DNA of 64,000 nt, taken from contig JAXLYP010000017.1 of NCBI GenBank assembly GCA_046351395.1, positions 1,508 through 65,507 of the forward strand, in the 5' to 3' direction. Of this stretch, positions 1,958-29,190 are shown piece by piece. The stretch's first letter is position 1; every line of letters begins with the position of its first letter. The notes beneath the pieces are model-generated. The model was not told where the DNA came from and ran no database searches. It saw only the letters and a list, made by a program, of their open reading frames with translations. The stretch comes from Polyangiaceae bacterium. Lineage in GTDB: Bacteria > Myxococcota_A > Polyangia > Polyangiales > Polyangiaceae. The position numbers and the translations under genes are program-made.

Positions 1958-3499
1958 ATGCTGTTCGCGGGACGCTATCGTGTCGTCCAGCGGATCGGTG
2001 TCGGCGGCATGGGCGCGGTCTACGAGGTCGTGCACGTCGAGACGGATCGGCGCCGTGCGATGAAGGTGATGCACGCGCACGTCGTCGAGAGCCCGGAGCT
2101 CCGTGCGCGCTTCAAGCTCGAGGCGCGGGTCGCAGCGCAGATCGACAGCGAGAGCCTCGTCGATGTGTTCGACGCGGGCGTCGACGTCGCGACCGGGATG
2201 CCGTTCCTCGTGATGGAGCTTCTCCGCGGTGAGGAGCTCGGCAAGCGCGTCGCGCGCTTGGGGCGCCTCGCTCCCGGCGAGGTCGTCGCGCACCTGCGCC
2301 AGGTCGGCCGCGCGCTCGAGAAGACGCACCGTGCGAACATCGTCCACCGGGATCTCAAGCCGGAGAACCTGTTCCTCCACGCAAAGGAGGACTCCGCACC
2401 GCGCGTGAAGATCCTCGACTTCGGGATCGCGAAGTTCGTCGCCGACGTCTCGACGCAGACCGGCGGGACGAAGAGCCTCGGGACGCCGCTCTACATGGCG
2501 CCCGAGCAGTTCCTCACGAAGCCGCCGTCCCCCGCGAGCGATCTCTATGCGCTCGCGCTCGTGACGTACACTCTGCTCGTCGGCTCGCCGTACTGGTGGG
2601 AGGAGACGCAGAGCGGCACGAACCTGATCGCCTTCGCGCTGGTCGCCGCGAAGGGCCCGGTCGAGCTGGCGACGGCACGCGCCGCGCGGCGAGGGGCCAC
2701 GCTCCCGCCCGCGTTCGACGCGTGGTTCGCGCGGGCGACGAACGCCGATCCAGCGTCGCGGTACGCGAGCGCGATCGAGATGGTCGAGGGCCTCGCCGCC
2801 GCGTTCGGCTTCCCGGTCGACGCGTCCACGAGCTCCGGGGCAACGCCGTTCTCTGCGACCGTGGCCGCGCCGAGCGGCGCGACGGGCCCCTCGCCGGAGC
2901 TCGTCACGGGGGCGGGGCGGGACGCCCTCACGGGGCCGGTGGACCACACGACCCCGGAGCCCGCTCGCTCGAGCGGCCCCACCACGGCGCAGCGCCTGGA
3001 GAGCGCGCCCTCGGTCGCGAAGACGAACCCTGTCGGGCCCCGACAGAGCTCGTCGCGCCTCCTCCTGGCCGTCGTGCTCGCCGCGGGGATCTCGGCGGCC
3101 GTCGTCCTCCTCGTCGTGAAGCTCGGCTCGTCTCCTCCTTCCGGAGCCGCGACTGGGTCGGCGGTCGTCGCGAACGCGACCGCGCTGTCCACCGACACCG
3201 CGTCGGCGAGGCTCACGGTTCCGATCGCGCCGCAGCCGAGCGACACCGCCCTCACGCCCGCGCCGAACGCGAGCGCCGCTCCGAGCGTGAGCGCCGCTCC
3301 GAGCGTGAGCGCCGCTCCGACCACGGCGCCCGCGCAGCCGCGCCGGCCGAAGCTCCGCAGCCGCGGCGTGAGGTGCACCGGGGCCGAGCCTGGCCGCTGC
3401 GTGTTCTGCTGCCAGCTCGAAGGCGACATCATGGGTCCGCCGCCGAACTGCGAATGTCTGTTCGATGGCGAGAAGTGGGATCGGGAGCACGGCGGCTGA
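1958..3499 (+). CDS. Ser/Thr protein kinase (Hanks-type) with Pro/Ala-rich linker, TM segment and Cys-rich C-terminal tail
   Basis: ORF 917..3499 trimmed to ATG 1958 (MLFAGRYRVVQRIGVGGMGAVYEV). Kinase motifs seen: the G-rich loop, AMKVMH (the catalytic Lys), HRDLKPEN, DFG and the APE motif. A TM helix LLLAVVLAAGISAAVVLLVV follows. The tail is CVFCCQLEGDIMGPPPNCECLFDGEKWDREHGG. Confidence 0.85.
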   Translation: MLFAGRYRVVQRIGVGGMGAVYEVVHVETDRRRAMKVMHAHVVESPELRARFKLEARVAAQIDSESLVDVFDAGVDVATGMPFLVMELLRGEELGKRVARLGRLAPGEVVAHLRQVGRALEKTHRANIVHRDLKPENLFLHAKEDSAPRVKILDFGIAKFVADVSTQTGGTKSLGTPLYMAPEQFLTKPPSPASDLYALALVTYTLLVGSPYWWEETQSGTNLIAFALVAAKGPVELATARAARRGATLPPAFDAWFARATNADPASRYASAIEMVEGLAAAFGFPVDASTSSGATPFSATVAAPSGATGPSPELVTGAGRDALTGPVDHTTPEPARSSGPTTAQRLESAPSVAKTNPVGPRQSSSRLLLAVVLAAGISAAVVLLVVKLGSSPPSGAATGSAVVANATALSTDTASARLTVPIAPQPSDTALTPAPNASAAPSVSAAPSVSAAPTTAPAQPRRPKLRSRGVRCTGAEPGRCVFCCQLEGDIMGPPPNCECLFDGEKWDREHGG

Positions 3500-6876: not shown

Positions 6877-9054
6877 CTACCCGCGCCGCCGCCTGCGCCG
6901 CGCAAGCGCCGCGCCGAGGAGGAGCGCAGAGACGCCGAGGACCTTGCCGCCATCCCCGTCGTGGACGTCGATGCGGCAGCTGCAGCCGCCACCCTCTGCC
7001 CCCGCGCCGCTGCCGGCGACGGGTTGGCAGGTCGCGCTGCACACGCCCTTGCCGTTGTCCGCGCCGAGGTCACAGACCTCGGTGGGCGCGTCGACGACCC
7101 CGTTGCCGCACGTCTCGTTGGAGGTGCAGGTCGCGTTGCAACCGTCTCCGCTCGTCTTGTTGCCGTCGTCGCAGGTCTCACCCGGGTCGACCACGCCATC
7201 GCCGCACGTCGGAAGCGCGCAATCCGCGGAGCAGCCGTCGCCGTCCGTGGTGTTGCCGTCGTCGCACGCCTCGCCGTTCTTCACGTCGACGTAGCCGTTG
7301 CCGCAGGTCTCGTTGGAGAAACAGTCGCTGCTGCACCCGTCGCCGGAGACGTTGTTCCCATCGTCGCAGGTCTCCGCGCCTTCGACCTCGCCGTTGCCGC
7401 AGAACTCGACCTTGCAGGTCGCGCTGCATCCGTCGCCGCCGGCGGTGTTGCCATCGTCGCACGTCTCGCCCTCCTTCACGTCGATGACGCCGTTGCCGCA
7501 CGTCTCGTCCGAGGCACAGAGCGCGCTGCATCCGTCGCCGTCGACCTTGTTGGCGTCGTCGCACGCCTCGCCCGCGTCGACGTGGCCGTCGCCGCACGTC
7601 GGGAGCGAGCAGTCGTTGTGGCAGTCGTCATTGTCGACCATGTTCCCGTCGTCGCAGCCTTCGCCGACCGCCACGTCGACGACGTGGTTGCCGCACGCCT
7701 CGTCGGACTTGCAGTCGGACGAACAGCCGTCCCCGCTGATCGTGTTGCCGTCGTCGCACGCTTCGCCGAGGTCGACGGTGCCGTTGCCGCAGTACTCGAT
7801 CTTGCAAGTCGGCGAGCAGCCGTCCCCTGGGAACGTGGCGCCGTCGTCGCACTGCTCGCCCGCCTCGCTGTCGACGACGTCGTTTCCGCACGTCTCGTCC
7901 GACTTGCAGTCGCTCGAGCACCCGTCGCCGCTCGTCGTATTGCCGTCGTCACACACCTCGCCCGGCCGAAGCAGCCCATCGCCGCAGAGCTCGACGTGAC
8001 ACGACGCCGAGCAGCCGTCGCCGCTCGTCGTGTTGCCGTCGTCGCACTGCTCGCCGACCGGACCGTCGACGATGCTGTTGCCGCAACCCTCCGTGGACGT
8101 GCACGTCGCGTTGCAGCCGTCGGCGCTCACGTTGTTGCCGTCGTCGCACGCCTCGCCTTTGGCGACGTCGACGATCCCGTTCCCGCAGATCTCGAGGGAC
8201 TTGCAGTCGCTCGAGCAGCCGTCGCCGCTCGTATTGTTGCCGTCCTCGCACGCCTCGAGGCCCTCCTTCACCCCGTCGCCGCACAGCTCGCGGTGGCAGA
8301 AGCGATCACAGCCGTCGCCGTTCGTCGAGTTGCCGTCGTCGCACTGCTCGCCCGCGTCGAGGATCCCGTCGTGATTGCAGAACCCCCAGACCCAGGTGTC
8401 CGCCATGGTCGTGATCCCGCCGACGTCATACTGTTGCCCCGCGAAGACGTCGTCGTTGCCGTAGGCCGCCATCGCGATCGGCACACCGAGCGTGTCGAGG
8501 CCGATGAACGAGTCGTCGTTGCTCGGCGTCCATCGGAGCTGCCCGATGAGCCCGCCGGAGCTGTTCCAGACGGTGAGGTATTGCGTGCCGTTGAACCCTG
8601 CGGTCAGGCCGACCTGCGTGACCGGAACCGAGAACGTCGCGACGAAGCCGAGGCTCCCGAACGATCCTGACGCTTCACCGCCGTTCGGGACCGGCAAGGG
8701 AAAGTAGACACTCGGGCCTGGTTGGTAGGTCGGCAAAAAGGCGCTGCCCGTGTTGGTCACGCCCGCGAGGATCGACGACAGTGCTCCCGAGCGCCACGTG
8801 AGGCCCCGGCCCGAATAGATCCCGGCGGGCACGAAGCCCGACGAGGCTTCGTTGAAGCGGCCGACTCCGATCCGCGCGACCTGCCGGCCGTCGGGTATGG
8901 CGATGACGGCTCCCTGGACGGTCACGTTTCCCGCGTGAGCAACGCCCGGCGCCGTGAGCGCGAGCATTCCGAGAAGTGGTGCGATGGTACTGGCGACGTT
9001 CGGGGCACGCAGGCCCCAGCGGCCACGAGCGAGTGCGGGCAATGACTGCTTCAA
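6877..9054 (-). CDS. Secreted protein with about 20 Myxococcus cysteine-rich repeats (TIGR02232-like) and a MYXO-CTERM-like anchor
   Basis: ORF 6877..9150(-). Tandem repeats of about 40 aa of the form CGNGxV(D/E)xGExCDDGNxxxGDGCSxxCxxE. The C-terminus GGGCSCRIDVHDGDGGKVLGVSALLLGAALARRRRRRG is a GC motif, a TM helix and an Arg tail, i.e. a MYXO-CTERM-type sorting signal. The start was placed at TTG 9054, which follows GGAGGTG (an RBS) and gives a signal peptide ...STIAPLLGMLALTAPGVAHA. The exact start is uncertain. Confidence 0.8.
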   Translation of the reverse strand: MKQSLPALARGRWGLRAPNVASTIAPLLGMLALTAPGVAHAGNVTVQGAVIAIPDGRQVARIGVGRFNEASSGFVPAGIYSGRGLTWRSGALSSILAGVTNTGSAFLPTYQPGPSVYFPLPVPNGGEASGSFGSLGFVATFSVPVTQVGLTAGFNGTQYLTVWNSSGGLIGQLRWTPSNDDSFIGLDTLGVPIAMAAYGNDDVFAGQQYDVGGITTMADTWVWGFCNHDGILDAGEQCDDGNSTNGDGCDRFCHRELCGDGVKEGLEACEDGNNTSGDGCSSDCKSLEICGNGIVDVAKGEACDDGNNVSADGCNATCTSTEGCGNSIVDGPVGEQCDDGNTTSGDGCSASCHVELCGDGLLRPGEVCDDGNTTSGDGCSSDCKSDETCGNDVVDSEAGEQCDDGATFPGDGCSPTCKIEYCGNGTVDLGEACDDGNTISGDGCSSDCKSDEACGNHVVDVAVGEGCDDGNMVDNDDCHNDCSLPTCGDGHVDAGEACDDANKVDGDGCSALCASDETCGNGVIDVKEGETCDDGNTAGGDGCSATCKVEFCGNGEVEGAETCDDGNNVSGDGCSSDCFSNETCGNGYVDVKNGEACDDGNTTDGDGCSADCALPTCGDGVVDPGETCDDGNKTSGDGCNATCTSNETCGNGVVDAPTEVCDLGADNGKGVCSATCQPVAGSGAGAEGGGCSCRIDVHDGDGGKVLGVSALLLGAALARRRRRRG

Positions 9055-10244: not shown

Positions 10245-12605
10245 ATGGCCCACCCGCCCGACGCTCCGACCCCGCCCGAGCCACCTCATCCGTGGATCGG
10301 TCGAACCCTCCGCGACAAGTGGCGGATCGATGGCTTGCTCGGCAAAGGTGGAATGGCGACCGTCTTCTCCGCCACCCATCGGAACGGGATGCGCGGCGCC
10401 ATCAAGGTGCTCAACGCTTCGACCGGCGAGTCCGCGGACGCGCGCGCGCGCTTCATCCGCGAGGGGCGCGCGGCGAATCGGATCGATCACCCGGGTGTGG
10501 TGAAGATCCTCGACGACGACGTGACGGAGGACGGGCTCACCTTCCTCGTGCTCGAGATGCTCGAGGGCGAGACCTGGAAGGATCGCTGGCGCGCCCATGA
10601 TAGGCGCCTGCCCGTGCGCGAGACGATCGAGATCGCGACCGAGGTGCTCGACGTCCTCGCGGCGGCGCACCGCGCGGGGGTCATCCATCGCGACGTGAAG
10701 CCGGACAACGTGTTCCTGTGCAAGGGGACCGGCGACCTCCGCGGACCGGTGAAGCTCCTCGACTTCGGGATCGCGCGCCTGCGCGAGGTCGCGGGGGAGG
10801 CGACGGCGGACGGCGCGACGCTCGGCACGCCCGCGTTCATGTCGCCGGAGCAGGCGCTCGCGCACACGGAGCAGATCGATCACCGCAGCGACCTCTACGC
10901 CGTCGGCGCGACGCTCTGGACGCTCCTCAGCGGGCGTCTGGTGCACCCCGCGGCGACGGCGCCCGCGCTGCTCATCGCAGCAGCGACGACGCCCGCGGCA
11001 CCGTTCTCGAGCGTGATGCCGGACGCCCCAGCCGACCTCGCGGGCGTGATCGACCGCGCGCTCGCGTTCGACAAGGAGGCGCGGTGGGCGGACGCGGACG
11101 CGATGCGGGAGGCGCTGCGGCGCACGCTCGACGCGCCGGCGGTCGCGACCCTCCGCGCGGGCGTCGCGAGGTTCGAGGATCTGTCCGCGCCGACGGAGCG
11201 GTCGGGGGCCGCCGTCGCGAAGACGATCAAGCTCGACGCCTCACCCCTTCAGGCGACCGACTTCGGCGCCCAAAAGACGCTCGCGCAAGCGACGGCCGCT
11301 GCGCCCACGCCGAGGCGGTCGTCGGCGCGCGCCCTGATCGGCGCTGGCGCGGTGATCGCGGTCGGCGCGGGGGTCGCGGTGCTCGTCTCGACGATCGGGG
11401 GCGCCTCGACGTCGACCGCGCGGCCGAGCGCCTCGAGCGCGCCCACCCCGTCGAGCGCCCCTCCTCCTTCCACGCCCGAGCCGGTCGCCTCTGCGGCGCC
11501 GCCGGGCGCACACCAGGCGAAGAACCTCTTCGCGGGGCTCTACAGCACGTGCGCGGTTCGCAAGGACGGGCGTGTCGTCTGTTGGGGCAACGATCCCAAG
11601 GTCGGTGTGACCAAGTCCGCGCCGGGGCCCGCGCTCGTGAAGCGCCTCGAGGATCCGCGCTCCCTCGCGATCGGGGAGGCGGTGGACCTCGCGATCGTGC
11701 CCGCGGGCGCCGCCGGCCCGCGGCTGATCGGTTGGGGAAAGAACGTGAGCGAACTGCTCGGGACCAGCGTCCCGGACGGCGCCGTCGTCGACGTCGAGCA
11801 CGCGGTCGACCTCGAGATCCCGGGGGCGACGGACGTCGCCGTCGGCATGGTCTACGACGAGACGAGCGCGTGCGCCGTCGTCGACGGCAAGATCGAGTGT
11901 TGGGGGCGCGCCGGGCTCGCCCGGAAGGGGGCGATGAGCGAAGATCGAGCACCCCTCGCGATCCGCCTCGTCGCGGGCCCGTTCGAGCTGCCTGCGCGCC
12001 ACGTCGGCCTCGGCGCGAGCGACTTCGCGTGCGCGCTCGGCCAGAACGACGACTTCGTGTCCTTCGGGTGTTGGGGGACGGACCACCCGGAGCTCACACG
12101 TCAACGGGATCCGAAGTCGCGCTCCACCGATCAGTTCTGGGGCGCGTCGCCCTTGGACGCCTGGGCGGTGGGGCCGAGCGGCGCGTGCTTCACGAGCGGG
12201 CGATCCGTGACCTGTTGGGGAGGTGTCGCGCGGTGCGACGAGTCCGCCGAAGCGCCGCCCATGTTCGTCGAGGAACCGTCGAGTTCCATCGCCGTCGCGG
12301 GAGACCACCAATGCCTCGTCAGCGCGTCCGGGAAGCTCGCGTGCTGGGGGCGGGCGAGCTCCGCGACCGGCGATCCCAAGGAGAAGCGAGGGACCCTCGA
12401 GTGCAGCCCCGTCCCCGTGCCGCTCCCGGACAAGGCCACGAAGGTCGTCGTTGGAGGGGCCCACACCTGCGCGCTCACCGCCTCCGGAGACGTTTATTGT
12501 TTCGGTCGCAACGACGCAGGACAGCGCGGCTGCGGCGACGAGATCGAGACCCCCGTGCCGTGCCGTGTATCCCTGGACGTCCACTCGAGCGCATCGAGGC
12601 CCTGA
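10245..12605 (+). CDS. Ser/Thr protein kinase with TM segment and C-terminal RCC1-like repeat domain
   Basis: ORF 9882..12605 trimmed to ATG 10245 (MAHPPDAPT...). Kinase motifs GKGGMATVF, AIKVL, HRDVKPDNV, DFG and SPEQ. TM helix ALIGAGAVIAVGAGVAVLV. C-terminal repeats of the form xCAVxxDGxVxCWG (CAVRKDGRVVCWG, ACAVVDGKIECWG, ACFTSGRSVTCWG, CLVSASGKLACWG, TCALTASGDVYCFGRNDAGQRG), typical of RCC1/beta-propeller repeats. Confidence 0.85.
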   Translation: MAHPPDAPTPPEPPHPWIGRTLRDKWRIDGLLGKGGMATVFSATHRNGMRGAIKVLNASTGESADARARFIREGRAANRIDHPGVVKILDDDVTEDGLTFLVLEMLEGETWKDRWRAHDRRLPVRETIEIATEVLDVLAAAHRAGVIHRDVKPDNVFLCKGTGDLRGPVKLLDFGIARLREVAGEATADGATLGTPAFMSPEQALAHTEQIDHRSDLYAVGATLWTLLSGRLVHPAATAPALLIAAATTPAAPFSSVMPDAPADLAGVIDRALAFDKEARWADADAMREALRRTLDAPAVATLRAGVARFEDLSAPTERSGAAVAKTIKLDASPLQATDFGAQKTLAQATAAAPTPRRSSARALIGAGAVIAVGAGVAVLVSTIGGASTSTARPSASSAPTPSSAPPPSTPEPVASAAPPGAHQAKNLFAGLYSTCAVRKDGRVVCWGNDPKVGVTKSAPGPALVKRLEDPRSLAIGEAVDLAIVPAGAAGPRLIGWGKNVSELLGTSVPDGAVVDVEHAVDLEIPGATDVAVGMVYDETSACAVVDGKIECWGRAGLARKGAMSEDRAPLAIRLVAGPFELPARHVGLGASDFACALGQNDDFVSFGCWGTDHPELTRQRDPKSRSTDQFWGASPLDAWAVGPSGACFTSGRSVTCWGGVARCDESAEAPPMFVEEPSSSIAVAGDHQCLVSASGKLACWGRASSATGDPKEKRGTLECSPVPVPLPDKATKVVVGGAHTCALTASGDVYCFGRNDAGQRGCGDEIETPVPCRVSLDVHSSASRP

Positions 12606-13369: not shown

Positions 13370-13909
13370 TCAGCGCACGACGCATCGCCTCGAGGCGTCG
13401 CACGTGGCGCCTGCGTTCTTGCATGGATTGACGGCGCACTCCTGGCTCGCGAGCTCACGGGTGATGGGCGTACCGCTCACGCACGGACCGCAAGGCAGCG
13501 TTGGACAGTCCGCGTCCGACTTGCAGGCGATCGCGCCCGGCGCGGGGGCGGCGGGGCGAGCGACGCACGTCCCGGCCTCGCACGCGGCGACCACCCGATC
13601 GCATGGGGATCGCTCACAGACAGTGGGGCAGGGGTCGACGTGCATCGCGATGGACGCGACGCACCGCTGACAGTCGCACGAGCTCACCACCTGACAGTCG
13701 GCGTCGACCTTGCACGAACCCTCACGACCCTGGGAGGATTGGACGCTGGTCGGGATGGAAGACGTCGAGGGCGTGGTCTCCGGCCGCTTTGGCGTCGCCG
13801 ACGAACCCTGCGGCGCGTCCGTCGTCCCCGAACCGCGCGGCTCGGGGGGCGGAGAGCACGCCGCGAGGGAGACGGCGACCAGACCGACGAGCGCTGAGCG
13901 GTGAGCCAT
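13370..13909 (-). CDS. Cys-rich secreted lipoprotein (hypothetical)
   Basis: ATG 13909 gives MAHRSALVGLVAVSLAACSPP (lipobox). About 20 Cys in 180 aa (CKVDADCQVVSSCDCQRC..., CPTLPCGPC). Confidence 0.55.
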   Translation of the reverse strand: MAHRSALVGLVAVSLAACSPPPEPRGSGTTDAPQGSSATPKRPETTPSTSSIPTSVQSSQGREGSCKVDADCQVVSSCDCQRCVASIAMHVDPCPTVCERSPCDRVVAACEAGTCVARPAAPAPGAIACKSDADCPTLPCGPCVSGTPITRELASQECAVNPCKNAGATCDASRRCVVR

Positions 13910-13948
13910 GCGAAGCTCGTATCGCCTTTCGGCCCTCGCTCCAAGCGC

Positions 13949-14003
13949 ATGGATCTCTCCGAAAGAGGGGATGAGCACCGCGTTTCAACGGGATGGGGCG
14001 CTA
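13949..14003. repeat. Truncated third copy of the TIR-bounded intergenic element (right-terminal ~55 nt only)
   Basis: ggatctctccgaaa...gcaccgcgtttcaacgggatggggcgctac aligns with the last ~55 nt of the copy at 22349-22529 (ggatctctccgaaatcggctgcatacctcggcgtttcatgatggtcggtgtctac). As in that copy, the terminal cta overlaps the TAG stop of the adjacent minus-strand gene (14001). Confidence 0.5.
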
Positions 14004-16141: not shown

Positions 16142-16780
16142 CTAGGGCAAACCCCCAATGCGCTCGAACGTCACGAAGTTGTAGTCGGCGCTCCCGGACG
16201 TGTTCCAGGTGGGCGGCGCGTCGTGGTGGAAGTTCAGGGACAGCTTCTGGCCCTTCGTGCAGCGCGTCGTCACCGTCCCCATGATCCGCGCATAAGTCTC
16301 GGTCGTCGAGAGATCGTGGATCACCGTCGCCGTTCCGCCCTCGACGGTCAGGTTCAGGCTCATGTTGGCGCCCCCGACTGGCAGCGTCCCCGCAGGGAAC
16401 TCGAGCGCCGCCGTCACGCGGTAGAGACCGGCGACGGGGCAGGCGTAGTCCCCCGTGTTGGGGTTCATCGCGTCGTCCGTGTCGTAGTCCTTGGTGTAGC
16501 CCACGACTTTCACGCCCGGTCCGGCCGCGAGCATCTGGCTCGCGTTCTGTGTGTAGCGCGCGGCCACGGTTCGCTCAAGCGCCACGAGGCGATCGTCCGC
16601 CTCCTTGAACAGCTTAAGGAGGCTCGAGGCCGAGACCGGCTTGCCGGTGTCGATCCATTGGGTGTCTGCCATCCAGGTCGCGTGTGCGCTCGTGACGAGG
16701 CCGGCGGAGAGCGCGAGCGCGCAGGCGAACGCCGCGCGCTTCACGCGAGGAGATGCTTCGATTTCGATCCGGATTCGCAT
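16142..16780 (-). CDS. Secreted protein (hypothetical; possible C1q/TNF-like beta-sandwich C-terminal domain)
   Basis: ATG 16780 gives MRIRIEIEASPRVKRAAFACALALSAGLVTSAHA (signal peptide). The remainder of the long ORF 16142..18385 upstream is Arg-rich junk. Confidence 0.55.
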   Translation of the reverse strand: MRIRIEIEASPRVKRAAFACALALSAGLVTSAHATWMADTQWIDTGKPVSASSLLKLFKEADDRLVALERTVAARYTQNASQMLAAGPGVKVVGYTKDYDTDDAMNPNTGDYACPVAGLYRVTAALEFPAGTLPVGGANMSLNLTVEGGTATVIHDLSTTETYARIMGTVTTRCTKGQKLSLNFHHDAPPTWNTSGSADYNFVTFERIGGLP

Positions 16781-19222: not shown

Positions 19223-20332
19223 TCACTCGCTCCCAACGTCTTTCGGGAGCAGCTCGCGCGCGACCTGGATGCGGAGAATCCCGTCCTTCACGCGCTGGTC
19301 GTCGCCCGTCTTCTCTCCTTCCATCACGAGCCGGAAGCCGAACTCACAGCCATTCAAGTAGCGGATCCACGCGGCGAAGACCTGGCGGAAAGGCTCCTCG
19401 GGCGAGAAGCGCTCGGCGCGCTTCACCTCGGCGGCCCACGCGGGGACGACGCGCTCCTCGAGGATCGAGGCGAACCGAGCGCGGTCGATCTCCTTCGCGC
19501 GGAGGGACGCGCTCGCCGCCTCATAGTCCTCCAGGATGGCCGCGATCGCCGCGCGGCTGCGCTCGATCTCCGCGCTCGTGCGCGACTCCGGGCTCGGCCC
19601 GGCGGTCACCGCGAGGACCCACACCACCGCGCTCAGGGCGAACACGCCCGCTCGTCTCAGGCGCGCGTCCCACGGGGGCGCGCGTCTCCGGGCGTCGAGC
19701 ACGAGCGCGGCCGCGTACCCCACGACGAACCCTCCGAAGTGCGCCGCGAACCCGAGCTCGCGCATCGCGAGGCCGGGCACGAGCGTGAGCACCGTCATCG
19801 TGAGCACCTTGATGACGAGCCACCTCCGCGCCGCCTCCGGGATCCGCTCCCTCTGCAGCCGGACCTCCGCGAGGAGGGCGCCGTACATCCCCATGATCGC
19901 GCCCGACGCGCCGATGTAGACCACGTCCGGCTGCCACCACGCGCTCGCGAGCGCGCCCGCGAGGCCCGACAGCAGGTACACGCCGACGAACGCGACGTTG
20001 CCGAGGATGGCCTCCGCGGCTCGGCCGATGAGCCACATGCCGAACAGGTTCGCCGCGAGGTGGAGCACCCCGTAGTGCAAGAACATCGACGTGAGCATGC
20101 GCCACGACTCCGCGCGGAGGGCGCGGCCGTGGAGCCCTCCCCATGCGCGGAGCGACGCCGTCGTCGGCGCGAGGACGGACACGCCCTGCGTCGCGAGCGC
20201 CGCGAGCACGGCGACGTTCGCGACCATCAGCACGTAGACGACGTAGACGCGCGCTCCGAGCGACGCGACGAACGCCCGCTCCGCAGCGCGGCCGCTCGTG
20301 CGTGGGGGTGGGGTCTCGTCTCGCCCCTCCAT
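19223..20332 (-). CDS. Rhomboid family intramembrane serine protease with C-terminal soluble extension
   Basis: ATG 20332 (MEGRDETPPP...). Six TM helices. Catalytic GASGAIMG (GxSG) and the His in AHFGGFVVG. The ATG overlaps the TGA stop of the upstream kinase (cgcTGATGgag). Confidence 0.8.
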   Translation of the reverse strand: MEGRDETPPPRTSGRAAERAFVASLGARVYVVYVLMVANVAVLAALATQGVSVLAPTTASLRAWGGLHGRALRAESWRMLTSMFLHYGVLHLAANLFGMWLIGRAAEAILGNVAFVGVYLLSGLAGALASAWWQPDVVYIGASGAIMGMYGALLAEVRLQRERIPEAARRWLVIKVLTMTVLTLVPGLAMRELGFAAHFGGFVVGYAAALVLDARRRAPPWDARLRRAGVFALSAVVWVLAVTAGPSPESRTSAEIERSRAAIAAILEDYEAASASLRAKEIDRARFASILEERVVPAWAAEVKRAERFSPEEPFRQVFAAWIRYLNGCEFGFRLVMEGEKTGDDQRVKDGILRIQVARELLPKDVGSE

Positions 20333-22338
20333 CAGCGCGCGAGCTGTGCGCGCAGCGCTCCGCAGCGCTCGCCGAGCCAGAACTGAAGGAGAGTCTGTCG
20401 ACGACCCCGTCGACGGTGAGCACCCCCGCGGCTGGCGGAGTGCGCGTGGATACCGCGGAGCGCGCTGCCGAGGTCGCCCGTGACGACGAGCGCGGCGCGC
20501 GCGGCGGTCGCGTGTGCTCCCCGGATCGTGCGCCCCAGATCCGCGACGGAGGCCGACTGCAACAGGCGATCGACCTTCTCGCCGAGCGCGTCGCGCTCCG
20601 CGGGCCGCAAGTTCTGTCGGAGCATCGCGGTGATCGGCGCCGTCTCCGCGTGCATCGCCGCGGACCGCCCCGTCGCTTCGGCGAGGCTCGTCACGAGGTT
20701 CCGGAGGTTCTCGGTCGTCCCGAAGAAGTGCGCCGCGTAGAGCTCGGGCCGGAGGCGCGCGAGGGATCGCGCGGCCACGAAGAGCGCGCGCGGTGGTGAG
20801 AGGATCGCGAAGAACGACGCGCTCGCAACGCACGTCGGCGGCGCGCCGTGGTGGACCGCGACGGGGACGGCGCTCTCCGCTCGCACGAGGACGCGGGGCG
20901 TGTGGATGGCGAGGAGCGCCGCCGCGCGGAGCACCGCCGCGAGCGGCTCGGATGGCGGCGTGTGAGGGTCGAGGGGCCACGTGCGTTCGCCGGCGGGCGC
21001 GCTTCGCGCGCCGCTCGCGCGCGCGCGCGGCGCGGCCGCGCCGCCAAGTACGTCCACGAGGGGCAGCGCGAGATCCTCGTGCAAGAGCGCGCGCCACGCG
21101 GCATCGTCGAGCGGGACCGTCAGCGTCGCGGGGCGAGGGGGAGCGCCCGCGAGCGCCGCCTCGCTCGGCGACGCGTCCTTGAATGCGGAGAGGAGGGTCG
21201 CCGCTCTCCACGAAAGATCGCCGTCCCCCGTGCTTGCAGCGAACGAGAGGAGCTCGCGGACGAGCCGCGGCTGGCGCGGCGTGCGCTCGAACTCCGCGCG
21301 CACGTGCGCGATCGGCCGGCGACCGCCCGTGACTTTCGCCGGCTCGTCCGGCTCGACGAGATCGGGGTCGATCTCGTCGATCTCGTCGATCTCGTCGATC
21401 TCGCCGATCTCGTCGATCTCCTCGAAGTCCGCGGGATCCAGGAACTCCTCCTGGGCGCCGCCCCCCAGGAGGACCGGTCGGAGCGCCTCGAACGCCTCGC
21501 GGGCGCTCGGAAAGCGGCGCGCCGGATCGCGCGCCACCGCGACGAGGAACCACGCGTCGAAGCCTGGCGGGAGCGCGCCGCGCACGCCGCGCCGCGCCGC
21601 GCGCACACTCGGCGCCTCGATGGGATCCATGATCACCTCGCGCAGAAGGGCGTGCACGCTCGAGTCGGAGTCCGTCGCCGCGTTCCAATAGTACGCGCCC
21701 GTGAGGACCCGAAACGCGATGAGACCGAGCGCCCACACGTCCGTCGCCGGGGTGATGCGGCCCTTCGAGTCGGACTGCTCGGGCGCCATCCAGAGCGGCG
21801 TGCCCATCGATTGCGTCGCCTGGCTCACCGCGCTCGCGACGACCTTCGCGATCCCGAAGTCGAGGATCTTCACGTGGAGGTCGGCGCCGATCCTCCGCGA
21901 TCGGGCGAGGAACACGTTCTCCGGCTTGAGGTCGCGGTGCACCACGCCGCGCGCGTGCGCCGCGGCGAGCCCGTGGCAGAGCTGCGCGAGGATCACCGCG
22001 GCGTCCGCGGCGCTCTTCGCGCCCGCGCGCGTGAGGTGCGCGGCGAGATCTTCCCCGGAGAGCAGCTCCATCGCGAGGAACGGCGTCCCCGTCGGAGCGT
22101 CGACGCCGGCCGCGACCACCTCGACGACGTGGTCGCTCTCGATCGACGCCGAGATCCGCGCTTCCTGCACGAAGCGCTCGCGGAGGCGCGCGTCGCTCAC
22201 CAGGTTCGGGTGCATGAGCTTCAGGGCGCGCTGGCGGCCCGTGGAGAGCTGCTCGGCGACGAACACCGAGCCCATCCCGCCCGCGGACAACGGCCGAAGG
22301 ACGCGGAAATCGCCGCCTACGATCGCGCCCGCCTTCAT
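20332..22338 (-). CDS. Ser/Thr protein kinase with acidic (EID)n repeat linker and long C-terminal domain
   Basis: MKAGAIVGGDFRVLRPLSAGGMGSVF, ALKLMH, HRDLKPENV, DFG and APEQ. Linker FEEIDEIGEIDEIDEIDEIDPDL is encoded by a 9-nt tandem repeat. The stop overlaps the rhomboid start. An RBS (GAGGAG) lies 5 nt upstream of ATG 22338. Confidence 0.8.
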   Translation of the reverse strand: MKAGAIVGGDFRVLRPLSAGGMGSVFVAEQLSTGRQRALKLMHPNLVSDARLRERFVQEARISASIESDHVVEVVAAGVDAPTGTPFLAMELLSGEDLAAHLTRAGAKSAADAAVILAQLCHGLAAAHARGVVHRDLKPENVFLARSRRIGADLHVKILDFGIAKVVASAVSQATQSMGTPLWMAPEQSDSKGRITPATDVWALGLIAFRVLTGAYYWNAATDSDSSVHALLREVIMDPIEAPSVRAARRGVRGALPPGFDAWFLVAVARDPARRFPSAREAFEALRPVLLGGGAQEEFLDPADFEEIDEIGEIDEIDEIDEIDPDLVEPDEPAKVTGGRRPIAHVRAEFERTPRQPRLVRELLSFAASTGDGDLSWRAATLLSAFKDASPSEAALAGAPPRPATLTVPLDDAAWRALLHEDLALPLVDVLGGAAAPRARASGARSAPAGERTWPLDPHTPPSEPLAAVLRAAALLAIHTPRVLVRAESAVPVAVHHGAPPTCVASASFFAILSPPRALFVAARSLARLRPELYAAHFFGTTENLRNLVTSLAEATGRSAAMHAETAPITAMLRQNLRPAERDALGEKVDRLLQSASVADLGRTIRGAHATAARAALVVTGDLGSALRGIHAHSASRGGAHRRRGRRQTLLQFWLGERCGALRAQLAR
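21368..21425. repeat. 9-nt tandem repeat (gatctcgtc) x~6.5 encoding (EID)n in the kinase linker
   Basis: Direct reading: gatctcgtcgatctcgtcgatctcgtcgatctcgccgatctcgtcgatctcctc. Confidence 0.8.
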
Positions 22339-22348
22339 CCGCTCCTCG

Positions 22349-22529
22349 CTAGAGCACCGGACACGTCGAGACCCGAACGAATGCGCTCGAGTTCGAGGGA
22401 GAGGCGCACGCCCGAGGAGCGAGCGCCCGAAGCCGACTCCGCATCATGCCCGGAGCAGCGCGACGAGGCCGTTTGGATCTCTCCGAAATCGGCTGCATAC
22501 CTCGGCGTTTCATGATGGTCGGTGTCTAC
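22349..22529. repeat. TIR-bounded ~181-bp intergenic element, copy A (MITE-like)
   Basis: Starts ctagagcaccgg and ends cggtgtctac. About 85% identical to the reverse complement of 28085-28266 over the full length. Its left end lies 10 nt upstream of the kinase ATG (22338). Its right-end cta doubles as the TAG stop of the cyclophilin gene. Confidence 0.7.
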
Positions 22530-23347
22530 GGCGCGCAGCGCGTGATCGCGATCGAGTTCATGTGGATCGGGACGAGGGGCTTGTCGTTCGCGTCCGTCAT
22601 CACCTCGGTGATCGCCTTCACGACGTCCACCTCGGCGCAGTGGCCGAAGATCACGTACTTCCCGTCGAGCCCGCTCTGATCGACCTCCGCGACGATGTAG
22701 AACTGGCTCCCGTTCGTGTTCGTGTGCGGCCCGGAGTTCGCGTACGCGAGCGTTCCGGGGGTGTGGCTCAAGGCGGGATCGATCTCGTCGGCGAACTTGT
22801 AGCCCGGGCCTCCGGTGCCCTCGCCGAGCGGGTCACCGCCCTGCGCGACGAAATTGTCGATGACGCGGTGAAAGATCAGCCCGTCGTAGAACCGCGTGCC
22901 CTTGAACCAGTGCGTCCCCTTCCTGAAGGGCCGCCGGCCGCGCGCGAGGCCGACGAAGTTCGCGACGCCCTTCGGCGCGGACTCGGGGAAGAGCTCGCAC
23001 GTGATCGAACCCATCTCGGTGTCGATGATCGCGCGGAGCGGCCCCGGGCCCTCCGGCAGTCCCGCGAGCGCCTCTTCCATCGTGAAGTCGCCCATCTCGG
23101 GATCCTTGCCCGTGCCGAGATCGACGGTCGGGAGCGTCGTGTCGTCCGCGGGGCACTGCGTGATGGGCTCGCCCGAGCTGCTCGAGGAGCCGGTGTCCGC
23201 GGTCGTCGCCGTGGTCGTCGACGAGGTCGTCGCGTCGGCGCTCGACGAGGACGTGGCGCCGCCCGTCCCGGGCGCGTCCGTCGCGCTCTTTTCGCACGCG
23301 GTGGTGAGGGCGGCGAGCGCCGCAGCGAGGAGGTGAGCCCTGCTCAC
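22526..23347 (-). CDS. Peptidyl-prolyl cis-trans isomerase, cyclophilin type, lipoprotein
   Basis: GTG 23347 preceded by GAAGGGAG gives [20 protein letters not shown] (lipobox), then a Ser/Thr-rich linker. Cyclophilin motifs FHRVIDNFVAQGGD, GSQFYI and the conserved W. Confidence 0.85.
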   Translation of the reverse strand: MSRAHLLAAALAALTTACEKSATDAPGTGGATSSSSADATTSSTTTATTADTGSSSSSGEPITQCPADDTTLPTVDLGTGKDPEMGDFTMEEALAGLPEGPGPLRAIIDTEMGSITCELFPESAPKGVANFVGLARGRRPFRKGTHWFKGTRFYDGLIFHRVIDNFVAQGGDPLGEGTGGPGYKFADEIDPALSHTPGTLAYANSGPHTNTNGSQFYIVAEVDQSGLDGKYVIFGHCAEVDVVKAITEVMTDANDKPLVPIHMNSIAITRCAP

Positions 23348-26412: not shown

Positions 26413-26509
26413 CCCACCGCATCGGCGCTTTCGCGCGCGGCTCGCCTCGCCGGCCTCCCGAGTTGACGCACCTCCGAGCCAGGTGCGAGCCTTTGTCCAC
26501 GCAGCGCGC

Positions 26510-28084
26510 ATGGAGAGCCCGGCCGAAATCGGTGATCTGATCGCCGGCAAATACCGCGTCGACAAGGTCCTCGGGACCGGCGGCATGGGCGTCGTCGTGG
26601 CGGCGACGCACGTGGGCTTGAACGAGGTCAGAGCGATCAAGATGCTCCGACCGAAACTCGCGACGAACCCGGCCTACACCGATCGGTTCCTCCAGGAGGC
26701 GCAGGCGATCGCGCGCCTCAAGAGCGAGCACATCGCCCGCGTGCACGACGTCGGCATCCACGTGCGCGCGGACGGCCAGAGCGTGCCGTACATGGTCATC
26801 GAGTACGTCGAGGGCGGCGATTTTGCGACCGTCCTTCGGCAGCGCGGTGCCCCTCCCGTCGAGCAGGCGGTGACGTACGTCCTCCAGATCACCGAGGCGC
26901 TCGCCGAGGCCCACAAACACAACATCGTCCACCGGGACATCAAGCCGGCGAACCTCTTCCTGTCGACGAGCAACGACGGATCCGCGTGCGTGAAGGTGAT
27001 CGACTTCGGCATCGCGAAGACGGCCGCGAACCTCACGCAGGTCGGCGTGGTGCTCGGCAGCCCGCGCTACATGTCGCCCGAGCAGATCCGGGAGTCGCGC
27101 GACGTCGACGTGCGCGCCGACATCTGGTCCCTGGGGATCGTGCTCTACGAGCTCCTCACGGGACAGACCCCGTTTCAAGGTGGCGGCATCCTCGAGGTGT
27201 GCGAGCGCATCTTCGAGGACGACCCGGCGCGCCCGTCGCGGCTCCGCGCCGACGTTCCGGCCGCGCTCGACGCGGTGGTGCTGCGCTGCCTCGAGAAGGA
27301 TCGCGAGCGCCGCTACCCCCACGTCGCCGCGCTCGCGGAGGCGCTCGCTCCGTTCGCGACGGAGGACGCGCGCACCGTCGCGCAGCGGGTCGCGCGCGTG
27401 CTCGGCGTCGCCTTGCCGGCGAGGGTGCCGCTGCCCGCGGCGCCCGCGGTCGATCCATCGCCCAGCCACACGGACGTCGATCCCCGCCCGGTCGTGGTGC
27501 TCTCCACCCCCGATCCGCGCCCGCTCGGGCAGGACACGTCGACCGATCTTGGCCCGCCGAACGGCGCCGCGGCGCCTCCCGCGCCGACGCTCGTCTACGC
27601 CCAGCCCGGTCACCCGCGTCCTCCGTCGGGGCCTCGCGTCGGATCGGTGACGGAGACGTCCCTCGGCGCGATCGGCGCGGCGTCGCCCATGCCCGTCGGG
27701 GCTGTGTCGACGCTCCCCGCTGGGCGCGGGCGCCTGATCGCGATCGCTGCCGTGACGGGCGTCGCGGTCGCGGCGGTCGCGACCGCGATCGCGTGGCCCG
27801 CCGACCGAACCGCTCCGCCGAGCGCGGCGAGCGCGGCGGCGCCGTCGGACACGAGCTCCGCGCCCGCGCCCGCGCTCGCGAGCTACTCGGCCCCCATCCA
27901 CGCGGCCTCCTCCGACGCGAGCTCGAGCGCGCCGCTCACGGCGAGCTCGAGCCCCAGCGCATCGGCGCAGCCGTCGAGCGCTCCGCCCCCGCGCGCGACC
28001 TCGGCCCCGCAGCGCCCCGTCGGTCCGACGACCGCGCCGCCGCGATCGCCGGGCGGGCTCACGTCGAGCCGAGGCAGGATTTAG
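26510..28084 (+). CDS. Ser/Thr protein kinase with TM segment and Ser/Ala/Pro-rich C-terminal tail
   Basis: MESPAEIGDLIAGKYRVDKVLGTGGMGVV, AIKML, HRDIKPANL, DFG and SPEQ. TM helix LIAIAAVTGVAVAAVATAIAW. An alternative GTG start lies at 26483. The TAG stop at 28082-28084 is followed directly by the TIR element. Confidence 0.85.
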   Translation: MESPAEIGDLIAGKYRVDKVLGTGGMGVVVAATHVGLNEVRAIKMLRPKLATNPAYTDRFLQEAQAIARLKSEHIARVHDVGIHVRADGQSVPYMVIEYVEGGDFATVLRQRGAPPVEQAVTYVLQITEALAEAHKHNIVHRDIKPANLFLSTSNDGSACVKVIDFGIAKTAANLTQVGVVLGSPRYMSPEQIRESRDVDVRADIWSLGIVLYELLTGQTPFQGGGILEVCERIFEDDPARPSRLRADVPAALDAVVLRCLEKDRERRYPHVAALAEALAPFATEDARTVAQRVARVLGVALPARVPLPAAPAVDPSPSHTDVDPRPVVVLSTPDPRPLGQDTSTDLGPPNGAAAPPAPTLVYAQPGHPRPPSGPRVGSVTETSLGAIGAASPMPVGAVSTLPAGRGRLIAIAAVTGVAVAAVATAIAWPADRTAPPSAASAAAPSDTSSAPAPALASYSAPIHAASSDASSSAPLTASSSPSASAQPSSAPPPRATSAPQRPVGPTTAPPRSPGGLTSSRGRI

Positions 28085-28266
28085 CTAGAGCACCGATCAT
28101 GTTGAAACGCCGACGTATGCACCCGATTTCGGAGAGATCCACACGGCCTCGTCGCTCCGCTCCTCAGATGACGAGGAGTCGTCTTGCGGTGCTCGCTCCT
28201 CGGACGTGCGCCTCTCCCTCGAACTCGCGCGCATTCGTTCGGGTTTCAACCTGTTCGGTGCTCTAG
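28085..28266. repeat. TIR-bounded 182-bp intergenic element, copy B (MITE-like)
   Basis: ctagagcaccgatcatgttgaaacgccgacg...cattcgttcgggtttcaacctgttcggtgctctag. The terminal inverted repeats are 12/12 perfect and about 30/35 over the extended termini. It fills the spacer exactly, from the kinase stop codon to the GTG start at 28267. Confidence 0.75.
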
Positions 28267-29190
28267 GTGCGAACGTCGCTCTTCGCGATCGCCCTCGCCT
28301 CGCCATCCGTCGCGCTCGCCGCGCCCGGTCCCACGTCTGCGCAGGCCGAGGCGCTGTTTCAAGAAGGGATCGCGCTCGTCGATCAGGGGCAGCCCGCCCT
28401 CGGCTGCCCGAAGCTCGAAGAGAGCGAGCGGCTCGAGTCCCAGGTGGGCACCGAGTTCCGACTCGCGGACTGCTACGAGCGCATCGGGCGGACCGCGAGC
28501 GCGTGGGCCCTCTTCGTCCAGGTGCAGGGGAAGGTCGAGACGAAGGAGGAGATCGAGAAGGCGAAGGGACGCGTGGACGCGCTCGCGCCCAAGCTCACGC
28601 GCCTGCGCATCCTCGTGCCGGACGCCGTCGCGTCGCTCGTCGAGCTCGAGGTGCAGCGTGACGGTGTGCTCGTCGGTCGCGCGAGCTTCGGAGCGGCGGC
28701 GCCCGTGGACCCGGGGCCCCACACGATCCGCGTGACCGCGAAGGGCAAGGCGCCCTGGGAACGGCACGTCACGGCGGACGGGCCCGGCGCGACCGTGGAC
28801 GTGTCCGTCCCCGAGCTCGAGGCTTCGACCGAGGGGAGCGCGGGTGGCTGGGGCATGCACCCGCGGCGCGTGGCGGGCTTCGCGATCGGTGGTGCGGGGC
28901 TCCTCGGGCTCGCGATCGGCGGCGTGCTCGCGGGCGTCGCGGCGAGCACGTGGAGCGACGCGGAGGCCCTCTGTCCCGCGAAGAAGGGCTGCTCCGAAGA
29001 GGCGCACGCCGAGAGCCTCACCGCGCTGTCGCTCGCGGACGGCGCGACCGCGATGTTCGTGATCGGCGGTGCCCTCGCCGCGACCGGGATCGTCCTCGCC
29101 GCCATCCCGACGTCGCAGGGAAGCGCGGAGCGCGCGGCGGTGTGGATCGCGCCAACCTTCGGGGGCGCGCTCCTGAAGGGGACGTTCTGA
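28267..29190 (+). CDS. Secreted/membrane protein with PEGA-like beta domain and C-terminal TM helices (hypothetical)
   Basis: GTG 28267 gives MRTSLFAIALASPSVALAAPG (signal peptide). N-terminal TPR-like helix pair. PEGA-like segment LRILVPDAVASLVELEVQRDGVLVGRASFGAAAPVDPGPHTIRVTAKGK. Two C-terminal TM helices. There is no SD sequence, because the start abuts the repeat element, so the start is uncertain. Confidence 0.5.
   Translation: MRTSLFAIALASPSVALAAPGPTSAQAEALFQEGIALVDQGQPALGCPKLEESERLESQVGTEFRLADCYERIGRTASAWALFVQVQGKVETKEEIEKAKGRVDALAPKLTRLRILVPDAVASLVELEVQRDGVLVGRASFGAAAPVDPGPHTIRVTAKGKAPWERHVTADGPGATVDVSVPELEASTEGSAGGWGMHPRRVAGFAIGGAGLLGLAIGGVLAGVAASTWSDAEALCPAKKGCSEEAHAESLTALSLADGATAMFVIGGALAATGIVLAAIPTSQGSAERAAVWIAPTFGGALLKGTF

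Follow-up and report, generated by a model that had tools for sequence, protein, structure and literature searches.

A probable 176-bp MITE at TAG stop codons in a Polyangiaceae genome

The spacer downstream of the kinase gene and its repeated unit

The window (the whole 64-kb stretch of DNA analysed here) contains a spacer of 182 bp at positions 28085-28266. It lies between the TAG stop of a Ser/Thr protein kinase gene (28082-28084) and a GTG start at 28267 (Table 1). This GTG is the first possible start past an in-frame TAG. It yields the publicly annotated 307-aa protein (P0001, an NCBI MAG protein, with 100% identity and coverage). The source MAG is that of an uncultured Polyangiaceae soil bacterium, and the locus tag is U0414_26550 on a 246-kb contig. 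The original prediction had treated everything from the kinase TAG to this GTG as one 182-bp unit. The sequence is as it was quoted there, and the start is that of P0001. The mobile core of the unit, which we call copy B, is 176 bp long (28088-28263). It runs from GAGCACCG to CGGTGCTC, and TA is duplicated at both of its flanks. The figure of 182 bp counts the halves of the target CTAG besides this core.

The ends of copy B are inverted repeats. The outermost 12 of 12 nt match perfectly, and further in 29 of 35 nt and 38 of 47 nt match. These counts agree with the 12 perfect and roughly 30 of 35 matching nucleotides of the original prediction, and the CTAG described at both ends is present. 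Copy B is self-complementary and forms an imperfect palindrome over its full length. Its reverse strand matches copy B's own nhmmer model with an E value of 4e-13. The G+C content of the element is 63%, versus 71% for the window. The ORFs that overlap the core are only out-of-frame read-ins from the GC-rich neighbouring sequence, and the statement that the unit has no credible ORF stands.

Table 1. Positions of the element copies, their flanking duplications and the adjoining genes in the 64-kb window
Feature	Position	Strand	Remarks
Ser/Thr protein kinase gene upstream of copy B	26483..28084	+	Stop TAG; Pkinase 1.6e-50
Left TA of copy B duplication	28086..28087		Within CTAG 28085-28088, right after the kinase stop TAG 28082-28084
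Copy B core (176 bp)	28088..28263	+	Sequence, inverted repeats, core/TA reading, fold of 28085-28266
Copy B left terminal inverted repeat	28088..28131	+	47-nt arms, 81% complementary, counted from 28085
Copy B right terminal inverted repeat	28220..28263	+	Repeat finder
Right TA of copy B duplication	28264..28265		Within CTAG 28263-28266; GTG start 28267 directly next
307-aa secreted or membrane protein (signal peptide), downstream of copy B	28267..29190	+	Conserved partner of the kinase in relatives
Cyclophilin-type peptidyl-prolyl isomerase (PPIase) lipoprotein, upstream of copy A	22526..23347	-	P0241, 100% identity (NCBI MAG protein)
Left TA of copy A duplication	22527..22528	-	Supplies T and A of the PPIase stop TAG 22526-22528; the G is the element's first base
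Copy A core (175 bp)	22352..22526	-	86% identical to copy B; left terminus (minus-strand 5' end) decayed, GA-CACCGACC
Right TA of copy A duplication	22350..22351	-	Followed by GCGAGGAGCGG and the kinase A ATG at 22338
Ser/Thr protein kinase (kinase A), downstream of copy A	20332..22338	-	Pfam scan
Copy C, truncated and decayed left arm (~56 nt)	13946..14001	-	Equivalent to copy B positions 1-57
Element terminal sequence			GAGCACCGNNCANGTTGAAAC; common ending expected of any matching full-length element

The copies seen are two full ones and one truncated one, all within 15 kb of the 64-kb window. Copy A is the second full copy and is inverted relative to copy B. At 22349-22530 it matched copy B with 86.2% identity over 181 nt in blastn (E 5e-57) and with an E value of 1e-62 in nhmmer, in line with the roughly 85% first given for it. 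The repeat finder retrieved the same pair as arms at 22349-22524 and 28091-28266, which are 176 nt long and 86% complementary.

Copy C had been proposed as a truncated copy near 13949-14003. It is weak but real. Its nhmmer E value was 0.012, and none of 500 shuffles attained its local alignment score to copy B positions 1-57. In the window the composite pattern GAAACG-N-TTTCGGAGAGATCC has three occurrences versus 0.00 expected. The start of copy C is at the TAG stop (14001-14003) that ends the upstream gene on the minus strand, and 37 nt separate the copy from an ATG at 13909. The neighbours are a 429-aa ORF ending at 14001 and a lipoprotein-like ORF starting at 13909.

The 15-mer TTTCGGAGAGATCCA is found at 13951-13965, 22475-22489 and 28126-28140. 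All three copies share it without a mismatch, even the otherwise decayed copy C, and GAAACG sits 16-17 nt upstream of it. It may be a putative subterminal site for a transposase or a host factor.

All three copies lie between same-strand genes and have one orientation relative to them, which has a chance probability of 0.25. The original prediction had also described each copy as directly abutting the start of the downstream gene. The common orientation holds for three of three copies, and copy B does abut its start, but copy A is 10 nt away. Those 10 nt include a GAGGAG ribosome-binding site. The genes that flank the copies are functionally unrelated.

Copies A and B are similar only as far as the element ends (176 nt) and have different genes around them. 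A segmental duplication was therefore rejected as their source. Three traits indicate that the insertions are old: copies A and B differ by 14%, the left end is decayed in copy A, and copy C is truncated. Copy B has the only perfect ends (12 nt) and may still be mobilisable. Copy A, with its decayed left end, and copy C, which is truncated, appear to be fossils.

The window contains at least four Ser/Thr kinase paralogues (2099-2521, 10621-10717, 20332-22338 and 26483-28084). Short stretches of their catalytic-domain DNA match one another at 63-97%. Two of the three copies of the element adjoin kinase genes, which is probably a mere consequence of kinase gene density. In kinase A, residues ~300-320 (window 21380-21440) form an acidic EEIDEIGEIDEIDEIDEID repeat linker, which joins the kinase domain to a C-terminal domain of unknown function. 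Just two full-length homologues of kinase A were found, both 43% identical.

Other repeats are also present in the window. The minus-strand gene at 6877-8967 encodes a 696-aa protein with at least seven cysteine-rich DUF4215 repeats (Pfam 3.7e-64). It contains a repeat array at 7089-8371, in 93/102-nt units with a 195-nt super-period, which is coding and unrelated to the element. An 18-nt unit (GCGTGAGCGCCGCTCCGA-like) occurs four times in tandem at 3249-3338, apparently in or beside coding sequence.

Target site and orthologous junctions

The left end of all three copies is at a TAG stop or 1 nt beyond it. The left junction reads ...ATT TAG C-TA-GAGCACCG... at copy B, ...GCG CCG TA-GA-CACCG... 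at copy A and ...GTTG TA-GCGCCCC... at copy C. Of the 40 predicted genes of the window, 8 have TAG as their stop and 31 have TGA.

Seven sites with the tetranucleotide CTAG are present in the 64 kb, versus 30 expected under a second-order (trinucleotide) model or 170 expected from base composition. Element ends account for three of the seven sites. The other CTAG sites are four only, at 16142, 25407, 32228 and 56416. Site 16142 overlaps with a TAG stop; site 25407 is in the spacer between the divergent NAD-synthase and pyrophosphatase genes. These four sites are potential unoccupied targets for the element.

The original prediction had offered TA or CTAG as the target. The duplicated target at copy A is TA, at most TAG. 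A 4-bp CTAG duplication is excluded there because the left side has GTAG and the right side has CTAG. A 3-bp TAG duplication would leave the termini asymmetric. By the same logic copy B is read as C-TA-[28088-28263]-TA-G, and its empty site would have been TAG-CTAG-GTG.

Syntenic junctions were retrieved for both full copies from the closest retrievable orthologues, at 52-80% protein identity. None of these junctions contains the element. The PPIase-kinase spacer is 20 nt, and the spacers between the kinase and the 307-aa gene are 1 and 22 nt.

(a) Copy A locus. Three relatives (L042, L043 and L044) carry pyrophosphatase, NAD synthase, PPIase (80% identical), 20 nt and the kinase. The first 141 residues of their kinase are 79% identical to kinase A. 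Their PPIase-kinase junction is ATCACGCGCTGCGCGCCGTAGCTCCGCGGAGGACCGCGGCAATG, with ...TCACGCGCTGCGCGCCGTAGCTCC... across it. At copy A the window reads TCACGCGCTGCGCGCCG-TA-[GACACCG...CGGTGCTC]-TA-GCGAGGAGCGGATG. When the 175-bp core (22352-22526) and one TA are taken out, the window aligns straight across the junction of the relatives, and GCGCCGTAGC is identical. This excision restores the relatives' GCGCCG-TAG-C, and the empty site has a single TA.

(b) Copy B locus. Two relatives (L013 and L014) encode P0002, an orthologue of the 307-aa protein that is 70% identical. Their junction is kinase-TGA-c-GTG, with a 1-nt spacer (aagatcTGAcGTGcgc), and the gene is preceded by the tail of the orthologous kinase (...PGGLTSSRGKI and stop). 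A third (L015) encodes P0003, which is 52% identical. It contains the kinase, 22 nt, the gene and, further on, the same FHA/sigma-54 activator as the window.

The kinase A homologues P0122 and P0123 (43% identical) and the PPIase homologues P0243 and P0247 were uninformative for synteny, their junctions not being conserved.

Empty orthologous sites at both loci mean that copies A and B both appear to be insertions, and a gain in the lineage of the window is the parsimonious reading. Loss in the lineages of the relatives is less likely. At 52-80% protein identity between the window and these relatives, it would need several independent deletions that happen to be precise to the TA. The comparison of orthologous loci was the check that the original prediction had proposed for its reading of the unit as a MITE, and the loci are empty at both full copies. 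It had also named the outcome expected of a conserved regulatory region, which is the same sequence in syntenic positions of related genomes. The element is absent from both orthologous junctions.

A related Polyangiaceae MAG encodes an ORF with a GIIM (group II intron maturase-specific) domain (L040, 20181-20669). This indicates other mobile elements in Polyangiaceae genomes.

RNA fold and the regulatory reading

The unit could instead be a conserved structured cis-regulatory RNA or small RNA of its operons, such as a leader, an attenuator or a processing site, that is not mobile. For the RNA of copy B (182 nt, 28085-28266) the folding energy is -86.5 kcal/mol, well below that of shuffled sequence (z = -6.5, and z = -3.7 within its flanks). 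The like orientation of the three copies relative to their same-strand neighbours also agrees with an RNA function, as does the identity of the 15-mer across them. We nevertheless consider this reading very unlikely.

The stability of the copy B hairpin follows from the inverted repeats alone. The fold is lost in copy A, which folds no better than shuffles (z = -0.7). Mapping of the copy B structure onto the A/B alignment shows that copy A has lost 10 of the 39 pairs in the terminal stem, and this stem has no double change. The whole structure contains a single double change. This equals the shuffle expectation, in a comparison of two sequences only that has low power. The original prediction had pointed to compensatory changes as the mark of a conserved ncRNA; between copies A and B there are none beyond shuffle expectation. 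At both loci the relatives lack the element in the orthologous spacer, the genes around the copies share no function, and a common orientation of three copies is expected by chance in one case of four.

Rfam gave no match at gathering thresholds across the window. At E <= 10 the matches around the element were at chance level only (E 0.8 and 4.8), and no Rfam family was recovered. A scan found no sigma-70-like promoter in copies A and B. It also found no intrinsic-terminator-like site in them.

A cassette made of a terminator plus a promoter, or a 5' leader, was the alternative named in the original prediction. It did not hold up. No promoter or terminator sites and no Rfam family were found, the orthologous spacers of the relatives lack the element, and the changes between copies are uncompensated. 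On these grounds the reading as a regulatory cassette or ncRNA was rejected.

Class of element, possible parent and known relatives

The unit is very probably a MITE, here a DNA transposon of the non-autonomous cut-and-paste kind, 175-176 bp long and mobilised in trans. This is supported by its size, its lack of coding capacity, its inverted repeats, the duplication of its target and the empty orthologous sites. The element is ordinary mobile DNA, and it represents no new mechanism or class. Judged by sequence, it appears to belong to an unreported MITE family, with no detectable relative and no Rfam entry among the collections searched. A full-text search of the literature collection used here found no description of a MITE in Myxococcota.

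The transposase is probably of the IS630/Tc1-mariner type, or possibly of an IS5-family subgroup. The 2-bp TA target duplication of IS630/Tc1-mariner elements is present at copies A and B. According to the ISY100 report (PMC2170065), a strict 2-bp duplication of TA marks this group, and nearly all insertions of ISY100 are at TA, which is duplicated. The title of Tenzen and Ohtsubo 1991 (cited in PMC2170065) states that IS630 prefers TA within 5'-CTAG-3'. The pneumococcal MITE RUP was attributed to IS630-Spn1 from its ends and target alone (PMC2229807).

The same MITE could have its parent in the IS5 family (IS427/IS1031-like subgroups) and not in the IS630 family. The termini of the element begin with GAG, and its target is TA within (C/G)TAG. 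IS5-family subgroups have GAG/GGC-type ends and make 2-4-bp duplications at CTAG/TNA-like targets. Such a parent is nonetheless unlikely. Copy A excludes a 4-bp duplication, and a 3-bp one makes the termini asymmetric. A strict 2-bp TA duplication points to IS630/Tc1-mariner (PMC2170065).

A REP/REPIN-type palindrome would be spread by a RAYT transposase (Y1, IS200/IS605-like) that recognises a hairpin beside GTAG/CTAG. The repeat is palindromic and intergenic, its copies are clustered, and its termini adjoin GTAG or CTAG tetranucleotides. REP sequences contain a conserved GTAG. We give this origin very little credence, however. The comparison of the filled and empty sites has TA duplicated at copy A, and Y1 transposition makes no duplication. 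The arms of 45-55 nt and the interior of ~90 nt are far above the size of a REP unit. The scanned window proteins do not include a Y1 transposase.

Searches for a parent or for further copies gave negative results. No transposase or full-length IS with matching ends was found among 30 Pfam-scanned window proteins, from a GC3-based gene list that is incomplete and may lack a small or degraded transposase ORF. No parent IS with matching ends was present in the viral (IMG/VR) or plasmid (PLSDB) sets. The terminal-repeat consensus had 0 matches in IMG/VR, the 15-mer had 27 chance matches there, and blastn with the element gave no match in the PLSDB plasmids. The pattern GAAACG-N13-21-TTTCGGAGAGATCC was found at 12 loci in the GTDB species genomes and at 21 loci in JGI metagenomes, both at chance level only and in collections without the source MAG. 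In nhmmer, the match at the loci from these pattern scans was limited to the pattern stretch. No homologue of the element was found in ~108 kb of the relatives' loci. Because the patterns were exact ones of 15 to 21 nt and the source MAG is absent from the collections, this is a weak negative and not evidence of low copy number.

We propose that a transposase encoded elsewhere would mobilise the MITE, which has long imperfect terminal inverted repeats of ~45-55 bp. Its insertion target would be the TA of an NTAG sequence, with duplication of that TA. In a genome of 71% G+C, TA and above all CTAG are scarce, and insertions inside genes would be selected against. Most tolerated targets would therefore be TAG stops or lie within a few bases downstream of one. 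Because G is the first base of the core, insertion into the TA of a TAG stop would rebuild the stop and be silent for the upstream protein. The spacer between stop and start would be filled exactly because non-coding TA targets cluster at TAG stops and the G of the core rebuilds the stop. At copy A the downstream GAGGAG ribosome-binding site is intact and lies outside the element.

Each copy is probably co-transcribed with its flanking same-strand genes. The RNA of copy B may form a long hairpin with the kinase UAG and the downstream GUG at its base. A ribosome that terminates at the kinase UAG could melt the stem and free the start region. The hairpin may influence mRNA processing or translational coupling, in the way reported of Correia and ERIC elements (PMC2229807). 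A kinase-partner junction of just 1-22 nt in the relatives points to translational coupling between the kinase and its 307-aa partner, at a junction that copy B may have split. A broader reading is that the element is the founding member of a Polyangiaceae MITE family specialised for TAG stops, perhaps an abundant one. Its near-perfect palindrome would fold the insert of ~180 nt into an RNA hairpin in which the upstream stop and the downstream start (UAG and GUG at copy B) are neighbours. The coupling of kinase and partner would thereby persist despite the insertion, or come under regulation through ribosome unwinding or RNase III cleavage. We regard this broader reading as improbable.

For annotation, the element explains the odd 182-bp spacer and the CTAG sites at the element ends in a genome that avoids CTAG. 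A repeat of this type can break assemblies of large myxobacterial MAGs. MITEs are already well known in many bacteria, and abundance across the genome is usual for them. This one illustrates well how a shortage of targets in a high-GC genome steers a TA-specific transposon to TAG stops, here also into a gene pair, kinase and partner, that looks translationally coupled.

(a) RUP. Like the element, RUP is small and non-coding, with terminal inverted repeats, an intergenic location and TA targets. Both contain stop codons and no ORF, and for both the mobilisation in trans is deduced from the ends and the target alone (PMC2229807). It differs in being 107 bp long, AT-rich and Gram-positive, with ~100 copies and a known parent IS (PMC2229807). 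The element is 176 bp long, has 63% G+C and comes from a Polyangiaceae MAG in which three copies were seen. The two have no sequence similarity.

(b) IS630 and ISY100. These elements also duplicate TA on insertion, and only their terminal inverted repeats are needed in cis, as given in the ISY100 report (PMC2170065). They are autonomous, 0.9-1.2 kb long and encode a DDE transposase, whereas the element is non-coding. Its repeats are ~45-55 bp, compared with 24 bp in ISY100.

(c) Correia/NEMIS and ERIC/IRU. The elements of Neisseria (Correia/NEMIS) and enterobacteria (ERIC/IRU) have no sequence relationship to the element described here. Neither the IHF sites nor the promoter-like ends of Correia elements were detected in it. 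Both groups resemble it in being palindromic, at ~100-160 bp, in lying between co-transcribed genes and in forming long RNA hairpins. Correia elements duplicate TA. The hairpins of Correia and ERIC elements are reported as substrates of RNase III or RNase E that alter the stability of the flanking mRNA (PMC2229807).
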